DNA of 64,000 nt, taken from NCBI GenBank assembly GCA_050013255.1, contig JBEKFP010000001.1, positions 128,001-192,000 on the forward strand. Reading direction: 5' to 3'. The notes under the pieces were generated by a model. The model saw nothing but the letters and a program-made list of their open reading frames with translations. It did not search any database and was not told the origin of the DNA. The position numbers were made by a program, and so were the translations under genes. Of the stretch, positions 4,752 to 57,957 are shown one piece after another (within the stretch, counting starts at the first letter, position 1; the number at the start of each line of letters is the position of its first letter). This DNA is from Candidatus Bathyarchaeia archaeon. GTDB lineage: Archaea; Thermoproteota; Bathyarchaeia; 40CM-2-53-6.

Positions 4752-5327
4752 GTGATTTCGACGCAAGCGGAAGACTCGCTGGAGAAGATCTCAAACGAAG
4801 TGGTTTCTTGCAGGAAGTGCCGGCTTTGTGAGACGAGGAAGAAAGCAGTTCCCGGTGAGGGGTCATCAAATGCGAGGGTGATGTTTGTCGGGGAAGCCCC
4901 AGGAGAGCAAGAGGATATTCAGGGTCGTCCATTTGTTGGAGCTGCTGGTAAACTTCTCACCGAGCTCCTTGCGTCGGTAAATTTGGGGCGAGAAGAAGTT
5001 TACATCACGAATATTGCGAAGTGTAGGCCCCCGAACAACAGGCCGCCCAGAAAGGATGAAGCGGCAGCTTGCAGGCCGTACCTTGAACGGCAGATCGCCC
5101 TCATTCAACCAAGCGTAATCTGCCCGATGGGAAACTCAGCGATACATGCGCTAATCAACTCGGATGATCCCGTAACGGAAGTTCATGGTATACCCTTCGA
5201 GGTCGGTGGGAAGACATACTTTCCCATGTACCACCCAGCTGCCGCCCTCTACACCTTCAGTTTGAGGGAGGTGATGCTGGAGGATTTCAGGAAGTTGCGT
5301 GCACTTCTTGACTCTACAGTAGACTAG
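4752..5327 (+). CDS. udg: Uracil-DNA glycosylase, family 4
   Basis: CRKC.LC Fe-S motif; GEAPG; GRPFVG; KCRPPNNR; HPAA. Confidence 0.95.
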
Positions 5328-6301
5328 TCTTCTTCGAAGACAGGTTTGTTGCCTAGGACTTTATCGATTCGGTCCATAACCTCCGAATCTAGCTTTGAAA
5401 CTACTTCTGAGGCTTTCATGTTCTCTACGACTTGTTCCGGTCGGGTTGCGCCCGTAATTACCGTGCTCACATTCGGGTTCTTCAGGCACCATGCCAAAGC
5501 CAATTGCGCCATCGTACAACCCAGTTCAGAAGCAATGGGTTGCAACAGTTTCACTTTCCCAATGTTCTGCGGTGTGAGAATGTATTCGCGTAACCACTCG
5601 TAGCCTTGAAGCGAACCCCGAGTTCCTGCTGGGATGCCTTCGTTGTATTTGCCTGATAGTAACCCTGATGCCAACGGGCTCCAGATCGTTGTGCCCAAAC
5701 CAATTTCACGGTATAAGGGAAGGTATTCTTTCTCCACTCGGTCCCGATGCAACATATTGTATTGCGGCTGTTCCATCTGCGGCGTGTTCAGGTGCTGTTC
5801 TCTTGCAATAGCGTGGGCACGCATTATGTCAGCTGCACTCCACTCTGAGGTACCCCAGTATAGGATCAAACCCTGATGGACCAAATCGTCCATCGCCCAA
5901 ACTGTTTCCTCAATTGGAGTAGTCGGGTCGGGACGGTGGCAGAAGAATAGGTCCAGGTAATCGAGCTGAAGGCGTTTCAGGGACTTCCGGCAAGCTTCGT
6001 AGATGTGTTTGCGGGAGAGCCCCCTATCGTTAGGGCCTTCTCCACCCCAGAAGACTTTGCTGGACACAATGAAACTCTCGCGTGACCAACCCATCTTCTT
6101 GAGTACGTTTCCCATGACCTTCTCGGCGTTTCCTTTCGCATAGGCTTCAGCGTTGTCGAAGAAATTCACTCCAGCATCGTAGGCGGCAGACATGCATTTC
6201 AGCGCGGCATCTTCGCCGACTTGGCCCCCATATGTAACCCAAGCTCCCAAAGAAAGTTCGCTAACCTTCAGGCCTGCGCTACCGAGACGCCTATAGTTCA
6301 T
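5324..6301 (-). CDS. Aldo/keto reductase (Kv-beta-like)
   Basis: [19 protein letters not shown]; FFDNAEAY; SKVFWG; WSPLASG; start trimmed from 6526 to 6301. Confidence 0.93.
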
Positions 6302-6383
6302 AACTTGTCCACATCTCCCAGATTGAAAGGGCCATATTAAAGCGGTACCAATCTGAGCTGCCTTACAACCTTCGCAATCGACG

Positions 6384-6926
6384 TTATTTAGCCGCAGAAA
6401 TCGCCCTGAATATGTCGCCAGCTTTCGGACTAAAGTAACAATCGAACAGTAGGTTCGCGGCGGAGAGCAAGAGGAGAAAAACGCTAAACACCATCGGCAA
6501 GTCTCGAAACGAGGCAAATGCAACAAAAAATGGAAACACCATCGACGCTACAGCTCCTGAACTAAACATTGCAATACGCCCGCCACGACCGACCGATTGA
6601 AGTGACCCTCGATCGACCTTCAATGTCAAGACGGGTGACCTCGACGCGATCACGCTAAGGAATGGTATTCTGAGTCTGTAAACGGAAGACTTACCGAACG
6701 AGTAGTACCGAAACCTCACCCCAACCAACCTGCCTACAGCATAGTGTGTTAGGCTGTGTGGAAAGAAGAGTAAGCAAACCCACGCAACCAAGTATAGAAT
6801 CAGCTTCAAGGGAACGAGGGTAACCTCAGGAGCCATCACAATTAGGTACAGGGCGAAGAGAATGCCAACGATCTCAACTAGGTTACCAACCGCAATAGGA
6901 ATCCTCGATATAGTCAAAGGTGACAC
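6384..6926 (-). CDS. Membrane protein with HxxxH-like motif (M50-like fold, uncertain)
   Basis: Several hydrophobic segments; PHSLTHY and C-terminal SPKAGDI. Confidence 0.6.
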
Positions 6927-6948
6927 CTAACAACGTGCCAACCTTGGC

Positions 6949-7104
6949 TCACCATCTCTTGTAGTACTTGGTGCGATTCCGGCAACGCGTGCACGCTGCC
7001 TCTCGGTAAGGTTTACCCACCATCGGTTTTTTCCTTTCCCAACCCAAATCGTGTTTAGTCTCGGCCTTGCACTTTTCACAATAGAGGGTGACCCATTCCA
7101 CCAA
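6949..7104 (-). CDS. Small zinc-ribbon protein
   Basis: MVEWVTLYCEKCKAETKH...ACTRCRNRTKYYKRW, two CxxC pairs. Confidence 0.6.
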   Translation of the reverse strand: MVEWVTLYCEKCKAETKHDLGWERKKPMVGKPYREAACTRCRNRTKYYKRW

Positions 7105-7350
7105 ATCAAGGCTTCCCCACATTGTGCCAGCTTGTTTAGTTATTTTAACTCGCGCACATGAACCCGCAGAACCCACAGCAATCCTGACTGCATCCGAACG
7201 GTCTCATTTGAGCTCTAAAAGAGTGTGAACTTTCGCGAAATGCTTGAAGCACAGCCACAATCACAAACACAGCAAAGTAACACGTTCTCCCCATAAAATT
7301 ACACCACCCACCCCCCCCTCGCCGAACACCTGCGCCAGGCACGGTTGTGT

Positions 7351-52074: not shown

Positions 52075-52274
52075 GAAAGAAACACGATTCTTCACGCGTG
52101 CGGTTCGGAGCTATTAAAACTTGCCCCGTGGGCCTAACACGGCTTGATAGATGCACGTTTTGGATTCTCTGGCTTACATTGAGCGAAACTAACCCTTTTA
52201 TTGTAAAAAACGCCTCGCTTCAACATGCGAAACTCACACATTACAAGTATGAAACCGGAGGGCAGAGAGCCGCC

Positions 52275-53045
52275 TTGAGCTACGCAGACGCCCACCTACA
52301 TTTGGCGGACCCTGGCTTTGCCGGCCGCACAGAACAGGCCATTGATGATGCGACCAAGAACAAGGTGATGCGCCTTCTCTCAAACTCGGTGGATTATGAG
52401 ACGTCAACCCAAACCATAGCCTTAGCGAAACGATACTCCCCGAGGGTTCTCGCGGCCATAGGAGTTCACCCTTCGACGGTCATGAACACAAAAGACCAAC
52501 GTCTGGACGAGTTTCAGAAGCTAGTTGAGGAAAATGCAGGGTACGTTGCCGCAATCGGAGAGGTAGGTCTTGACGGAAAGTATACGCAAGACGAGCAGGT
52601 TAGAAAACGCCAGTTGGAAGTTTTCAGGTTCTTCCTTGGCCTGGCCGAGCGTAGAGGGCTACCAGTCGTAGTCCACTCGAGGATGGCAGTTGATGAAGTG
52701 CTACGAACCTTGCAAGACTTCCGTCTCCCCAAAGTCTTGTTACATTGGTATGATGGGCCGTTAGACAAACTTGAGGTGATTAGAGATAGAGGTTACCTGA
52801 TCTCGATCGGGCCAGCAGTATTCTACTCTCGGGCAATAAGCCAAGTTGCAGCTAACGTAGCATTGGACATGATATCGAGCGAAACCGATGGCCCCGTAAA
52901 ATACCACGGACCTTTCGAAGGCCGGCTCACGCAACCTTCTTTCGTAATAGAAGTGGTACAGAAATTAGCTGAGATTAAGGGCCTCCACATTGACGCAGTG
53001 CGAGAAGCGGTCTGGAGCAATTTCCAAAAACTCATTCCGCAATAG
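52275..53045 (+). CDS. tatD: TatD family hydrolase
   Basis: DAHLHL; GVHP; AIGEVGLD; VVHSR; LHWY; ETDGP; start trimmed to TTG 52275. Confidence 0.92.
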   Translation: MSYADAHLHLADPGFAGRTEQAIDDATKNKVMRLLSNSVDYETSTQTIALAKRYSPRVLAAIGVHPSTVMNTKDQRLDEFQKLVEENAGYVAAIGEVGLDGKYTQDEQVRKRQLEVFRFFLGLAERRGLPVVVHSRMAVDEVLRTLQDFRLPKVLLHWYDGPLDKLEVIRDRGYLISIGPAVFYSRAISQVAANVALDMISSETDGPVKYHGPFEGRLTQPSFVIEVVQKLAEIKGLHIDAVREAVWSNFQKLIPQ

Positions 53046-53067
53046 GACTGTACAGTTCCCGCATTAG

Positions 53068-53105
53068 GGATCTGCCAAACTATCTCTCGTATTCTTGGCA
53101 GAATC
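53068..53105. mobile_element. 38-bp internally deleted IS6-like remnant (unit A)
   Basis: GGATCTGCCAAA...TTGGCAGAATC; right end reads GATTCTGCCAAGAATACGAGAGATA, resembling unit C end GGTTCTGTCAAAAGTACGGGAGATA. Confidence 0.75.
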
Positions 53106-53157
53106 CGCATTAGGGCTCTGTAAAGTCTGCATCGGTTATTGCACTTTGAATATGGCT

Positions 53158-53292
53158 ATGAAGAAAATGATGATATCCGTATCCGACGACATGCTCAAAG
53201 CACTAGAAGCAGAACGCAAGGCACGAAAGTTAGAGACAGTACCAGAAGCCGTAAGAGCCGTGCTTGGAGAATACTTCAAGACGAAGCAATAA
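53158..53292 (+). CDS. Ribbon-helix-helix protein (unit B)
   Basis: MKKMMISVSDDMLKALEAERKARKLETVPEAVRAVLGEYFK. Confidence 0.75.
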   Translation: MKKMMISVSDDMLKALEAERKARKLETVPEAVRAVLGEYFKTKQ

Positions 53293-53304
53293 GAGGGGTT
53301 AAGG

Positions 53305-54090
53305 ACGGTCAGAAGAAGCCGATTCTTAGCACTTGCCATTATCTTTTGGCTAGCGTCAATAGGCTCCTTAGTAGTGGGAGCAGGGACGAACCCTGACCTC
53401 ATCTCTGGAGTCTCTTCGTTCTTGGTACGTGTGGGTTGGAGCAAACCTCCACTCATACCACTTGTTGAGTACTCTTCATCGATACAATTCACGCTTCCTC
53501 CATCGGTTCCCACTACTCCCATAGAGCCAGTAACCATGAAAGTTACACTGAGAGGAGAGGCTATTGTGGACAACGCGCCATTGACGATGATTGTAGACGC
53601 TCCAATCTCGGTCTTTGCAAAAGGAAATTGGACAATTGGCCCGACGATGGTAACTCCTGATAATGCACGCCCAGTTTCGTCTGGTATGCCTTCAACGCAA
53701 TTGAACTTGCGCTGGTGGACCACTGATGAATATGGTACCGAAATGTGGAATGGAACTGAGACATTCGAACTCACAACCTTTGGGGTCTTTGGTGTCACTA
53801 TTGGGATGTACATTGACCCTAGTCCACCAATGCGAGACTTTGAGAGTAGGACGGGTAAGTATGTAGGGTATGGTGGATACCTAACCATACACAACTCAAC
53901 AAAAATTATCGTTAATTCATCGGAAGTTAATGCCGCCGAACTAAGTGCGGAAAGAGCGATAGCGACAGGAAATAGTTTAGCATGGTTCATCATTTTCTTT
54001 GCCTCGCTTGATATTGGGTTTAGATTTTACGATTACAGTTCTGATGAAAAGGAGAATCATAGATGCGAACGCGAACCCGAAGAACCCTAA
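53305..54090 (+). CDS. Membrane-anchored/exported hypothetical protein (unit B cargo)
   Basis: Signal anchor VRRSRFLALAIIFWLASIGSLVV upstream of GTG 53374; C-terminal TM; start inferred at ACG 53305. Confidence 0.6.
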   Translation, partial: TVRRSRFLALAIIFWLASIGSLVVGAGTNPDLISGVSSFLVRVGWSKPPLIPLVEYSSSIQFTLPPSVPTTPIEPVTMKVTLRGEAIVDNAPLTMIVDAPISVFAKGNWTIGPTMVTPDNARPVSSGMPSTQLNLRWWTTDEYGTEMWNGTETFELTTFGVFGVTIGMYIDPSPPMRDFESRTGKYVGYGGYLTIHNSTKIIVNSSEVNAAELSAERAIATGNSLAWFIIFFASLDIGFRFYDYSSDEKENHRCEREPEEP

Positions 54091-54276
54091 GAATAAGCCA
54101 CCGCATGCCAGTTCGAGCCAAACATGAGACTGAAGGAATTCCTCGTTCATACTAAGGAATCCCATTATGATAAGAGTCCAGATAATACCGCTTAAGGGCA
54201 CGAAAAACCCGAATATCACCCAGTCTTCGTCACTTATGCTCACTATACGCGCCCTGATTTGAGAGAGGCGAACCAT
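53977..54276 (-). CDS. Small two-TM membrane protein (unit B cargo)
   Basis: Two hydrophobic segments; 3' end overlaps the convergent ORF. Confidence 0.5.
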   Translation of the reverse strand: MVRLSQIRARIVSISDEDWVIFGFFVPLSGIIWTLIIMGFLSMNEEFLQSHVWLELACGGLFLGFFGFAFASMILLFIRTVIVKSKPNIKRGKENDEPC

Positions 54277-54423
54277 CTCTCAGTTCGCCACGTAACCGAC
54301 GGTTCTTGACAACGGTAAAAATTGGAAGCGTCGGAACCAACCGCCGCCAACTTGACAGCGTCCGCATCAGGGTTCTGTCAAAAGTACGGGAGATAAATTC
54401 GCCTGTAAAGTCGCGGGAGATGC

Positions 54424-54744
54424 CTAACTTGATTTCCGCAATTTTTCAGTGATTATTCTAACGATTTCTCCCTTATCGAGTTGAACTTCCGTTCTTTCCA
54501 CGGTGATTTTAGCTCGATTATCTGTTTTCAATTTGTCGTACAACCAATTGGTGAATAGACCAATCGCCACTTGGCTGGATATAGTCAAGATGACTTGCGT
54601 TATCAGTAGTGCTTCTTCACTGTCCGCCCCTGAACTTAGCCCAAATCGGGCACTAACTGTTCCGCTAAAGATTTTCTTGTCATTAATTTCGCTGTAGATT
54701 TCTGAGGCTAATTTGAAGTCATGCGTTACCAAAACGATTTCCAT
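54424..54744 (-). CDS. Hypothetical protein (unit C cargo)
   Basis: 106 aa with hydrophobic helix ending IGLFTNWLYDKLK. Confidence 0.7.
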   Translation of the reverse strand: MEIVLVTHDFKLASEIYSEINDKKIFSGTVSARFGLSSGADSEEALLITQVILTISSQVAIGLFTNWLYDKLKTDNRAKITVERTEVQLDKGEIVRIITEKLRKSS

Positions 54745-54850
54745 AAAAGGAGAACTCTAACCTATCCTCTTATGACTTGCGTTCTGGGGTAACGCGTCGT
54801 TGTTGTTTGGTATGGGAAGGCGCGGCAAAGCGTTTGGTGGGGTTTTGAGG

Positions 54851-55297
54851 CTACTTTTCGAGAGTTGGTTTGTATCCCAGAATGTCAGGTTTGAACAAGC
54901 CTGATAGAAGGTTCCAGAAGGATAGGTATTGATGGCGAATCTTGTCATAGTCAGCTCTTATGATTCTTACGAAGTCATCCTGCCGATTTCCCACGAAGGC
55001 ATCCTCTGATGGTTTGGTCGCCAAAATATATCCGACATAGAAGTGGTGAAGGTTACGACTCATGAGATAATTCTTCTGATGAAGTAATTCGAGTAAGTCA
55101 TGATAATCCTGTTCCCCATGTTTCGGAAAGTGCTCTCTATCACTAAACCACGCATAGCGAAGAAGCGGAGAATACAGGCCGTCTAGCCGTTTCTCAATCG
55201 TCCTATGTCTTTGATTTAACGCTCCGACAAGGAGCGCGAACACGGCCACTATTAGAGCGGTAAGAATAGGGATTACTGTGCTAACGTTTTGGTCCAT
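54851..55297 (-). CDS. N-terminally membrane-anchored hypothetical protein (unit C cargo)
   Basis: MDQNVSTVIPILTALIVAVFALLVGAL...RLDGLYSPL; overlaps the transposase stop. Confidence 0.65.
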   Translation of the reverse strand: MDQNVSTVIPILTALIVAVFALLVGALNQRHRTIEKRLDGLYSPLLRYAWFSDREHFPKHGEQDYHDLLELLHQKNYLMSRNLHHFYVGYILATKPSEDAFVGNRQDDFVRIIRADYDKIRHQYLSFWNLLSGLFKPDILGYKPTLEK

Positions 55298-56429
55298 TTT
55301 GCTTCGAGGCATTCTGTATGATGGTCAGCCATTTGTCTTGCCCTTTGACCTCGATTCCCGCAACTTCTGAGGGTGTTTTCCCGTCTAGGGCTTCGTGTGG
55401 ACGAATGTAGTTATGGTAGATTTGTAGCCCTGTTAGGATTGGGCCGTCTGGTTTCTTGAGGTTTCTAGTTACTCTCTCGCGGTCGCGGATTTCTCCGTTC
55501 ATGCGTTCCATCTTGTTATTGTTGTGCTGTCCTGCCAAAGTGATTTGTCGAATGTGTACGGTGCTGTCGGATAGCTTGTTGGTTCGGAACTCTTTGAGCC
55601 ATGCATCGTGGTAAGAGCGTAGTCCGTCTGTGATTAGGATTTGCGGTTTCTTTCCTGCTCTATCCTTTGCCATTTGGAACAAGTGCCGTGCGTCATGTGT
55701 ATCTTTCGTGTCTGCTACTTCTTGTGCTATCCAGAATCTTGTCTCGTCGTCCATCATAGCGAAAACGTACTTCATGTTCCCGTGAAACTTCATGTAGAGC
55801 TCATCAGCCCGCCAAGTATCCGAAACTTGTGGCGTTATCTTGTCTAGGTACTTCTCCATCAGAGCCGTGTATCGCTTAATCCAGTTGTAGATTGTCTGGT
55901 GAGATACTTCCACGCCTTGAAGTCGCAAGAACTTCTTCGTGTTCCGTAGGCTCTCACCTGTGAAGTAGAGTTGAAGTGCGCTTGTCACGATTTGTGGTGT
56001 GGCTTTCAATCGCTCGAAACCTAGGTTCCTCACGAAGCGTTTTCCACAATTTTTGCATGTGAAGCGTTGAATGTCTCCGTTCTTGTTGTGTCGTAACCCA
56101 TCTCGAACTAATGTTTGCGAATCGCAGTAGAGGCATTTTGTTATGTCGAGAGGTCTGATTACTACTTGGTTGCTGACTTCGGCTCGTAATGCTTGCGAGA
56201 ATTCGACAGCCCAAATATGCTTACACTTAACCTCACGATAGATATGGTCGGGGCAACTGCAACGCCAAGCACGAAGATGATTATCCTTAACGACGGTGTA
56301 GAGGCCGTGTCCCGCTTGAGATTTGACCTGATAGGTTCCGTCGTCTAGCCGTGCGATTTGGCCTTCTAGCTTACAAATTTGTTGACCTCGCATTACTCGG
56401 CCTTCATCTATTTCACGTCTGAACGGCAT
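55281..56429 (-). CDS. IS6-like DDE transposase with N-terminal SWIM finger and Zn ribbon
   Basis: CSCPDHIYREVKCKH (SWIM); CLYC...CKNC; HTH SLR...VSHQTIYNWI; WRADE / ITDG / NNKMERMNG (DDE); YHNYIRPHEAL.GKTP. Confidence 0.92.
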   Translation of the reverse strand: MPFRREIDEGRVMRGQQICKLEGQIARLDDGTYQVKSQAGHGLYTVVKDNHLRAWRCSCPDHIYREVKCKHIWAVEFSQALRAEVSNQVVIRPLDITKCLYCDSQTLVRDGLRHNKNGDIQRFTCKNCGKRFVRNLGFERLKATPQIVTSALQLYFTGESLRNTKKFLRLQGVEVSHQTIYNWIKRYTALMEKYLDKITPQVSDTWRADELYMKFHGNMKYVFAMMDDETRFWIAQEVADTKDTHDARHLFQMAKDRAGKKPQILITDGLRSYHDAWLKEFRTNKLSDSTVHIRQITLAGQHNNNKMERMNGEIRDRERVTRNLKKPDGPILTGLQIYHNYIRPHEALDGKTPSEVAGIEVKGQDKWLTIIQNASKQNGPKR

Positions 56430-56439
56430 CTCAATCCCT

Positions 56440-56493
56440 GCCACAATATTGTGGCGTAACCCAAATATAAGCCTTGCCACTATATTGTGGCAA
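56440..56493. promoter_or_regulatory. Paired palindromic operators around a divergent promoter
   Basis: GCCACAATATTGTGGC (56440-56455, perfect) and TTGCCACTATATTGTGGCAA (56474-56493) flanking AAATATAAG. Confidence 0.75.
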
Positions 56494-56690
56494 TGGTGAT
56501 AAGAACGGTAAGAAAAGAAATTCTCGGTCAATCCGAACGTAGGATACTCGAAGCTTACCTGAAAGGCGAACGACTCAAAGGGTACAATACACTTCTATGG
56601 CGAATCCGTACTATCGGTCTTAGAGCAATCATAGAAGGTTGTGAGAAAGACATAGCACTGCTAAGGAAACTCGCACAAAAACTATCCTAA
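56493..56690 (+). CDS. Small basic helical protein divergent from the transposase (putative repressor)
   Basis: MVIRTVRKEILGQSERRILEAYLKGERLKGYNTLLWRIR...; start overlaps the second operator. Confidence 0.7.
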   Translation: MVIRTVRKEILGQSERRILEAYLKGERLKGYNTLLWRIRTIGLRAIIEGCEKDIALLRKLAQKLS

Positions 56691-56960
56691 ATGCAAAACG
56701 ACGACTAAGATTAGTAACCCCAAGTAAAGCAAGGGAAGGATAAGCAAAACCGCTACAAGTGCTACCTGCTTCCAACTCTCTCCTTCCCCTAGAATGAACC
56801 ACGCACCAGCAATAAATGGGGGGATTGTCAGAACAACAAGAATTGTCTCTTCTACAGACAATCGAAAGAACCCTACGTCGAAGGTGAAGAACCAGAACAG
56901 GTATGCATAGAGAGCGAGCAACACCATTACTGGTATAGATTGAAGTACGCCTTTGGCCAC
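56682..56960 (-). CDS. Three-TM membrane protein (unit C cargo)
   Basis: Very hydrophobic, 92 aa; abuts the upstream ORF. Confidence 0.65.
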   Translation of the reverse strand: MAKGVLQSIPVMVLLALYAYLFWFFTFDVGFFRLSVEETILVVLTIPPFIAGAWFILGEGESWKQVALVAVLLILPLLYLGLLILVVVLHLG

Positions 56961-57446
56961 CTAGTTCCCCTCACGGTCAACTAATAGAATTAGCTGGGCA
57001 TTGTAGCCTACTGCAATCAGAAAACCGAACAATGCCACGGCGAATAATATCCCTTCCCAACCCGAAGTATTTTGCGGAGATATGATGCCGTTGTCTATGC
57101 TTAGTCTAATGAGGATGGAACCTAGAAAGACCAAGCCTGCGAAGAGGTAGAATTGAAATGCTAAATCTAGCCGTTTGGCGGGTTCTAAAGCGGTTACGCG
57201 ATAGTCGGACATGCTGAAGATTTGGTTCTCTATTGTACGAATTTGTCTTGAACTGGCTCGTTTTAGCAGTTTTCTAACTTTCGCTCTACCTGTTCTGATT
57301 CGTTTTTCCTTAATCTTCCTAAGATTTGCTGAATACCTATGATGGACATCAAAACCGAGTCCCAAACTTAATGCCATCAGTGTAAGCGATACCCACCATA
57401 GCTCAGCGGCCATCGAGAAATCAGGAAAAGGAATCATCGATTGCAT
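56961..57446 (-). CDS. Membrane protein (unit C cargo)
   Basis: TM, basic linker, then two TM segments. Confidence 0.65.
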   Translation of the reverse strand: MQSMIPFPDFSMAAELWWVSLTLMALSLGLGFDVHHRYSANLRKIKEKRIRTGRAKVRKLLKRASSRQIRTIENQIFSMSDYRVTALEPAKRLDLAFQFYLFAGLVFLGSILIRLSIDNGIISPQNTSGWEGILFAVALFGFLIAVGYNAQLILLVDREGN

Positions 57447-57514
57447 ATTTGTTGTTTGCTATCTCCCGAACTTGACACAAGAAAAATCTCCCGCTCGTTT
57501 GACAGAACCCGCAT

Positions 57515-57528
57515 CAGCAAAGTTTATG
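57515..57528 (+). promoter_or_regulatory. Putative BRE/TATA of rps17e
   Basis: CAGCAAAG-TTTATG, TATA-like element ~45 nt upstream of the TTG start. Confidence 0.5.
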
Positions 57529-57570
57529 TTGAGTGCGCTTTGCTCTTGGTTCGATTCAGAGCTGTTAGGT

Positions 57571-57822
57571 TTGGGGAAAGTTCGCACTGATACAGTGAAG
57601 CGAGTTTCTAGGGAGGTACTTAGAAGATTCCCCGAACGTTTCGCTGGAGACTGGGAATCCGACAAGCAGGCCGTTAGTGACTTGGTGTCTACGCAGTCTA
57701 AACGCTTGCGTAACAGGATAGCAGGGTACGTGACAAGGCTGAAGGTTGTCGAAGCGGAACGCGCGGCCGCCACTGAGGTTGCCGCTGAGGCTCCCGAAGC
57801 AACGGAACCAGACGAAGAATGA
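57571..57822 (+). CDS. rps17e: 30S ribosomal protein S17e
   Basis: MGKVRTDTVKR...SKRLRNRIAGYVTRL. Confidence 0.95.
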   Translation: MGKVRTDTVKRVSREVLRRFPERFAGDWESDKQAVSDLVSTQSKRLRNRIAGYVTRLKVVEAERAAATEVAAEAPEATEPDEE

Positions 57823-57957
57823 GGCAATAGCCTCATCCCCAATTCTATTTCCTTGCGGGAAACACTAAAAGGGCAGTCTATGCTCTCCCGAACGAAAATT
57901 CGAATTACCCCGCAATGGGCGCAGGAAACAAATTCCGCTGGATAAGGTTGAGACGTA

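Follow-up and report, generated by a model that had tools for sequence, protein, structure and literature searches.

Organization of the tatD-rps17e locus

The window (the whole 64,000-nt stretch of DNA that was analyzed) contains a series of transposon-type units lodged between a tatD-like hydrolase gene and the ribosomal protein gene rps17e. The source genome, a 2.46-Mb assembly, is designated G000, and the other G numbers refer to relatives from the same Bathyarchaeia genus. The features of the locus are given below in their order along the DNA, with inverted repeats abbreviated as IR, target-site duplications as TSD, and a strand shown for the genes, promoter and leader.

52098-53045, plus strand: tatD-like hydrolase gene (Pfam TatD_DNase, E 5.5e-60)
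53038-53045: oldest 8-mer copy, CGCAATAG; its last 3 nt are the tatD stop TAG (53043-53045)
53046-53059: 14-bp near-palindromic, ends-only stub that reads as left and right end tips fused
53060-53067: 8-mer CGCATTAG, from the sequence
53068-53105: E1, a 38-bp ends-only unit with IS6-type ends
53106-53113: 8-mer CGCATTAG, from the sequence
53114-54362: E2, a 1249-bp cargo unit without transposase and with IS6-type ends (IR 17/24, TSD 7/8)
54363-54370: distal E3 target-site duplication CGCATCAG, matching 57510-57517
54371-57509: E3, a 3139-bp IS6-like cargo transposon with inverted repeats and a perfect 8-bp TSD
57486-57509: right terminal inverted repeat of E3 (25-nt pair at 88%; partner 54371-54394)
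57510-57517: promoter-proximal E3 target duplication CGCATCAG, ending in the purine that forms BRE position -6
57518-57530, plus strand: rps17e promoter, with BRE-like CAAAG (57518-57522) and TATA box TTTATGTT (57523-57530), conserved in 15/15 genus genomes
57531-57570, plus strand: rps17e initiation region and short 5' leader (40 nt), read from the sequence
57571-57822, plus strand: rps17e with a TTG start (Pfam Ribosomal_S17e, E 6e-16)

Between the tatD stop and the rps17e promoter there are five related 8-mers that separate four units with IS6-type ends, in the order tatD stop, stub, E1, E2, E3, promoter; the copies at 53060, 53106, 54363 and 57510 are each bounded by such ends. The 8-mer series is perfectly nested, running from CGCAATAG through two copies of CGCATTAG to two copies of CGCATCAG, with an A-to-T change common to copies 2-5, a T-to-C change common to copies 4-5, and derived bases restricted to the more promoter-near copies. 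The 8-mers on the two sides of E2 differ at one base (CGCATTAG versus CGCATCAG), and the two long ORFs of this unit had no Pfam match. The 8-mer was rejected as a sequence-specific target, as CGCATCAG alone occurs at chance level in the window (3 matches versus 2.5 expected) and the duplications of the family are alike only in their last two bases. Its significance stems from its context of IS6-type ends and not from its frequency, and junctions made of an end, 8 bp and another end were found within the whole 2.46-Mb genome only at the tatD-rps17e locus.

Remnants consisting of ends only were observed in several stacks, including the 14-bp stub and the 38-bp E1 (window 53046-53105) and an 84-bp unit in locus L074; positions 5296-7233 of locus L033 in G018 were listed among them as well. 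Together with the solo right ends seen in G003 and G012, these remnants suggest frequent internal deletion, or recombination between repeated modules of an end plus an 8-mer.

The segment 57486-57571 is the joint between transposon and promoter, in which the E3 right end is followed by the 8-mer, the BRE/TATA, the leader and the rps17e start. The initial annotation had placed the last 8-mer (57510-57517) directly against CAAAG-TTTATG, which the sequence bears out; the BRE/TATA-like element that it described about 45 nt before rps17e was also found, at a distance that is actually 48 nt from the TATA start and 53 nt from CAAAG. TTTATG (57523-57528) has one mismatch to TTTAWA, and a G and then CAAAG lie directly upstream. 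All 15 genus genomes have the core CAAAGTTTATGT unchanged and its adjacent bases are variable, which is the pattern expected of a promoter, and the BRE/TATA lies 48-53 nt upstream of the rps17e TTG in all 15. From the usual archaeal distance between TATA box and start site, transcription of rps17e would be expected to begin near 57550.

The rps17e gene is single copy in the source genome (one match in a genome search). Its TTG at 57571 is where position 1 of the Pfam Ribosomal_S17e profile aligns, and AGGT is found 1 nt upstream of this codon. An in-frame ATG at 57526, within TTTATG, was considered as an alternative start and is contradicted by the S17e profile and by the retention of the TTG in all relatives. 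A search for structured RNA or leader elements in 57300-57900 gave no Rfam family match.

E3 and its transposase

The terminal repeats of E3 are perfect over their first 12 nt (GGTTCTGTCAAA) and match at 21/24 positions overall, and the 8-bp TSD is perfect. Besides the transposase, E3 carries five passenger ORFs. The transposase gene is as follows.

55281-56429, minus strand: intact transposase, 382 aa, ATG at 56429, DDE_Tnp_IS240 core

The catalytic core was assigned to PF13610 (E 4.1e-16; 59.8 bits versus a cut-off of 27), and the N-terminal part contains a SWIM finger (E 3e-4) and a CxxC..CxxC ribbon. Its identity to 14 relatives ranges from 55 to 80%, and many Cys, His, Asp and Glu residues are invariant among them. 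Its AlphaFold2 model was poor, at a mean pLDDT of 57 and with the catalytic half disordered.

Elements were recognized in the scan as identical 8-mers bracketing 20-nt inverted repeats. A related end-pair scan of the source genome returned nine pairs with an IR of at least 16/24 and a TSD of 8/8, and zero when the flanking 8-mers were offset as controls. The median span of E3 relatives is 3.5 kb.

E3 is like the IS6/IS26 family (IS26, IS257, IS240), as portrayed in PMC7986276 and PMC6807381, in three respects, namely the IS240-type DDE catalytic domain (DDE_Tnp_IS240), the 8-bp duplication and the end motifs, a GG tip with cTGTt and caaa being present at both E3 ends (GGTTCTGTCAAA). It departs from this family in that it is not a small single-gene element and its transposase is not a protein of 213-254 aa built of H-HTH plus DDE only. 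In the IS6 review (PMC7986276), the elements are about 700-890 bp with a transposase of 213-254 aa as sole gene, a single member is listed with a passenger gene, and zinc-finger extensions are mentioned only for Clostridial clades h and i. Compared with an IS6 element of about 0.8 kb and one gene, E3 has 3.1 kb and five passenger ORFs, a 382-aa transposase with SWIM finger and zinc ribbon, and long two-module ends.

Two 17-nt palindromes of the GCCAC-N6-GTGGC type were also observed at window positions 56439-56492, in the interval that separates the transposase start from a divergent ORF of 67 aa (56487-56690). They resemble an operator pair for a small regulator encoded by the element.

Spacing between duplication and TATA box across the family

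If the determinant of targeting lies on the promoter side, as the initial annotation had suggested, the distance from TSD to TATA box should be constant among archaeal members of the family. The transposase has at least 551 relatives in total, and 80 loci were drawn from other species, covering Bathyarchaeia, Nitrososphaerales, Nitrosopumilales, Nitrosotalea, Methanoperedens and an Asgard chromosome. The spacing was assessed in 57 non-redundant elements with perfect 8-bp duplications, spanning several archaeal phyla. A TTTAWA box with at most 1 mismatch starts exactly at +6 in 36/57 elements, compared with 2.3% of control positions in the same loci (p about 1e-44), and an exact TTTAWA is found there in 14/57 compared with 0.2% of controls (p 1e-25); orthologous sites of related species are only partly independent of one another. 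The constant spacing was thus observed, and the peak at +6 is essentially one base wide. The rps17e TATA box in the window follows its duplication at this distance too.

The flanks of these elements give the logo [A/C][A/G] / [C/A]AAWN TTTATAT, in which the slash marks the edge of the duplication. The BRE consensus is RNWAAW, and the logo reads as this consensus with a TATA box behind it. Conservation is confined to the purine at -6 (position 8 of the TSD is A or G in 92% of family elements), the AA and TTTAWA; TSD positions 1-6 and the DNA 3' of the TATA box are unconserved. In 29/34 cases an ORF of 60 aa or more begins 25-130 nt downstream. The transposase was seen in both orientations (21 versus 16).

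The strict motif is absent at +6 to +8 in 16/57 elements, most of which, by eye, have a weaker A/T box at +6, and a few elements are clearly sited elsewhere (L056/L077, L065 and L072). Among the small MITE-like units of the source genome and two TnpB-carrying units with similar ends, a TATA box adjoins in only about 3/9.

Counted on both strands, TTTAWA occurs 326 times in the source genome versus 2402 expected. This 7-fold depletion makes a TATA box at +6 a rare signal, and it is consistent with a purging of spurious TATA boxes. A control promoter set from the same genome (TTTAWA upstream of ORFs) was noisy and gave an almost flat logo, so that the set is probably polluted by non-promoters; the upstream regions of its tRNA genes provide a small usable promoter set.

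The same transposase, with an archaeal-type TATA box at +6, was also encountered in L087, L093, L095 and L123, which are filed as 'bacterium', Pirellulales, Limnocylindrales and Saccharibacteria MAGs. These are probably misbinned archaeal contigs.

Other promoters occupied by the family

At loci of transposase homologues in the genus, the outer flank consists of an 8-mer, 3-5 bases, a TATA box (at +3 to +6) and a gene. The genes behind these boxes encode the thermosome, hsp20, an M48 (HtpX-like) peptidase, a cysteine-desulfurase-type (class-V) aminotransferase and COX2. The hsp20 promoter is occupied in five species and the thermosome promoter in four, the latter at four slightly different offsets and with four 8-mers. 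Three promoters are occupied in the source genome, those of rps17e, the thermosome and hsp20; the last was considered as an empty site and rejected, a decayed element being already there.

Just after the TATA box, the heat-shock-type promoters of the genus (hsp20, thermosome, M48 peptidase) carry a palindrome, found at the following places.

L047, L048, L050-L055, L058, L060-L062, and G000 C1 at ~106.3 kb and C2 at ~559.15 kb: [G/T]TTAC-N5-GGTAAC palindrome

The operator of the repressor Phr has been described as having 'TGGTAA at the start site' (PMC6316755). The palindrome resembles this operator and probably serves a Phr-like heat-shock repressor as its binding site.

Two further units with similar ends lie outside the window.

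G000 C2:62149-63427 and C1:854024-855281: TnpB units of ~1.27 kb with IS6-like ends (IR 22/24, TSD 7-8 of 8 bp)

Their sole gene encodes a TnpB/IS1341-like protein of ~400 aa, and the copy at C1:854024-855281 lies 2-3 nt upstream of the CTTTAAT box that belongs to a tRNA-Ser gene. Here an IS6-type shell may be carrying TnpB as cargo.

Position of insertion and polarity of the stacks

Four things are direct observations: the anatomy of the locus, the fixed spacing throughout the family, the repeated occupation of given promoters across species, and stack polarity. We regard it as highly probable that this transposase family inserts at a fixed spot upstream of the TATA box, that the promoter sets the position, and that a one-sided stack is the outcome. 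The transposase joins the ends such that the duplicated 8 bp correspond to -13 to -6 from the first T of the TATA box, and the duplication preserves 13 native bp upstream of that box. With these 13 bp kept, BRE and TATA are intact and the host gene would presumably still be expressed. Since the position would be set by the promoter, the next element would enter the same 8 bp, re-duplicate it and displace the older elements, and the result would be a stack that grows on one side, with the newest unit beside the promoter. The family-wide spacing supports the earlier proposal of a determinant on the promoter side and of insertion just upstream of the promoter without its disruption.

In nine of 13 stacks, the promoter-proximal unit has an intact transposase and the most distal unit lacks one; no stack shows the opposite arrangement, and four were ties (sign test p 0.004). 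The suggestion that new insertions favor the promoter-proximal copy is hence upheld by these 9/9 informative arrays and by the nested variants of the 8-mer. The stacks have a bearing on the idea that a resident end is the guide, with new elements drawn to the 8 bp beside an existing inverted repeat (as in IS30-type IR targeting or the targeted mode of IS26) and the promoter being incidental. Stacks do re-use one 8-mer at several loci, one MITE sits within an end-8 bp-end junction in L051, the solo right ends of G003 and G012 are exactly 8 bp from CAAAG, and IS26 preferentially integrates beside another IS26 (PMC7986276). A resident end would, however, act symmetrically and offer both flanks as well as inner junctions, whereas the stacks are one-sided in all informative arrays. 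In addition, single elements without a neighboring end are also found at +6 from a TATA box, the thermosome promoter is occupied at differing offsets in the four species, elements off promoters (L056, L065) have no stack, and the end-8 bp-end junctions of the source genome occur only at the rps17e promoter. We therefore consider guidance by a resident end very unlikely.

Random insertion followed by selection is in our judgment highly improbable; on this reading, insertions would survive only where they fall in the handful of harmless base pairs that separate a promoter from the gene upstream of it. The genomes are compact, with about 87% inside long ORFs. In G010 a native gap of 12 bp separates tatD from the promoter, and in the G000 lineage this gap is apparently 0 bp. 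The +6 peak is nevertheless one base wide across promoters with long or short upstream spacers, controls in the same loci show the motif at 2.3%, and the identical 8 bp are re-used although the first insertion supplies kilobases of dispensable DNA upstream. Survivorship must contribute to the observed pattern, as gene-internal insertions are lost and the native rps17e gap is at most 12 bp.

The rps17e locus in related genomes

The tatD-rps17e synteny is kept in 14 further members of the genus. Of these 14 relatives, 12 have an IS6-type right end at a distance of exactly 8 bp from CAAAGTTTATG (the CAAAG side), and the first 4-5 bases of the 8-mer before CAAAG differ between species. In G018 and G014, the closest relatives, the promoter-side 8-mer is CGCATTAG. 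G010 represents a naive site, with the tatD stop, 12 bp and CAAAG and with no transposon end, and the rps17e sites of G003 and G012, which retain the solo right end, are nearly empty.

Promoter-proximal elements with perfect paired 8-mers were identified in G000 (CGCATCAG, 3.1 kb), G018 (CGCATTAG, 4.7 kb) and G016 (CTGATTAG, 1.0 kb). The G018 element encodes a transposase 80% identical to that of E3, and the G016 element has none. G000 and G018 share only 66% identity in tatD, a divergence at which neutral 8-mers could not have remained matched since the common ancestor. Differing proximal elements with 8-mers paired within each species therefore indicate separate, recent and independent hits on one point. 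One ancient insertion before rps17e, inherited genus-wide with no recurrent targeting at the locus, would fit the right end plus 8 bp in most relatives and the E2-like left ends common to G000 and G014, but can scarcely be credited given that bases 1-4/5 of the 8-mer vary freely between species while the flanking copies are identical within G000, G018 and G016, around elements of different size and content.

What the transposase may recognize

With the promoter as the feature that very probably sets the position, two receptors come into consideration. We lean slightly, at close to an even call, toward a guide that consists of the promoter occupied by TBP/TFB, or of the DNA distortion that these factors cause. 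On the proposal of the initial annotation, the promoter or its bound TFB/TBP would be recognized perhaps by way of the SWIM/Zn-ribbon N-terminus. A TBP/TFB platform would fit because the target carries just the information that TFB and TBP read, and because the favored promoters are strong or poised. Phr blocks the recruitment of polymerase and not the binding of TBP/TFB. We tentatively propose that the transposase docks on the TBP/TFB-occupied promoter as an archaeal DNA-transposon counterpart of Ty3/TFIIIB, with Phr-type promoters being favored as they would long be occupied by TBP/TFB without polymerase. If this docking is correct, each stack would preserve, in order of arrival, the transposon invasions that a promoter has undergone. 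The source genome was noted to encode two paralogues each of TBP and TFB (C3:103221-103835, C2:743967-744533, C2:185389-186318 and C2:326169-327122).

It is also quite possible, as far as the receptor alone is concerned, that the transposase itself reads the BRE/TATA DNA, using the SWIM/zinc-ribbon/HTH region at its N-terminus and without contacting TBP/TFB. Site-specific prokaryotic transposons use their own DNA-binding proteins, such as TnsD of Tn7, which is a precedent for direct reading. The AA at -4/-3 is found in 78-84% of targets compared with about 30% in a crude genome-wide TATA set, and the E3 family has an N-terminal extension that is missing from the classical 213-254-aa IS6 transposases (PMC7986276). 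The information in the target logo is, on the other hand, confined to positions read by TFB/TBP, and the preferred targets are strong or poised promoters (heat-shock, ribosomal protein and tRNA), neither point being decisive. The sequence data would fit equally a TFB/TBP tether and a direct reading of BRE/TATA with selection removing the non-promoter hits.

Relation to known systems

The yeast Ty3 integrase is targeted by TFIIIB (TBP/Brf1) to Pol III start sites, and Dictyostelium TRE5-A and S. pombe Tf1 are further elements in this comparison. Ty3, by analogy, is the nearest functional counterpart of the E3 family, since both keep a fixed, narrow distance from the site of a TBP-containing initiation complex, insert in both orientations and leave the host gene functional. 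Ty3, TRE5-A and Tf1 are eukaryotic retrotransposons with retroviral-type integrases, whereas the E3 family is an archaeal DNA transposon placed at the edge of the BRE and not at the start site, for which TBP/TFB contact is hypothetical. The Drosophila P-element prefers Hsp70 promoters, its hot spots being broad regions of open chromatin; like the E3 family it is a DNA transposon that favors heat-shock promoters, but it lacks an offset from TATA that is a single base wide. Tn7 has one attTn7 site per genome, read by TnsD, and its target immunity prevents stacking. With this and other site-specific transposons the E3 family shares a safe-harbor insertion point that depends on a conserved feature of the host next to an essential gene, yet it occupies many promoters in each genome and can stack over and over at a single point.

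As in IS26 targeted conservative transposition and IS30-type IR targeting, new copies come to lie immediately beside resident ones. The targeted mode of IS26 produces no new duplication and leaves a shared IS copy (PMC7986276), whereas here each unit keeps both ends with a re-duplicated 8-mer between units, and growth is one-sided. Leader-proximal acquisition of CRISPR spacers and attI-proximal integron cassettes also yield a polarized, chronological array growing beside a promoter-bearing leader. This is an analogy only, as the E3 family employs a DDE transposase and not Cas1-Cas2 or a tyrosine recombinase, its units are whole transposons, and any adaptive function is hypothetical.

Neither fixed-distance promoter targeting nor polarized stacks were found for the IS6 family in a term search of PMC7986276 and PMC6807381, and a full-text search of a literature library, itself incomplete, returned no description of promoter-targeted archaeal transposons.

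Implications

As far as could be found, this would be the first prokaryotic DNA transposon family with an integration point set by a core promoter of the archaeal/eukaryotic type. To our knowledge, integration set by a promoter has hitherto been a strategy of eukaryotic retrotransposons. With one transposase, TBP, TFB and a short promoter, the family would offer a tractable system for how a transposase senses an initiation complex, and it suggests a route to tools for safe promoter-adjacent integration in archaea. For annotators, the insertions would be a free marker of archaeal promoters. Promoter-set insertion would also account for the cargo and defence islands that stand before chaperonin, ribosomal-protein and tRNA genes in uncultured archaea, and the one-sided stacks would provide a relative time-line of the invasions that these genomes have received.
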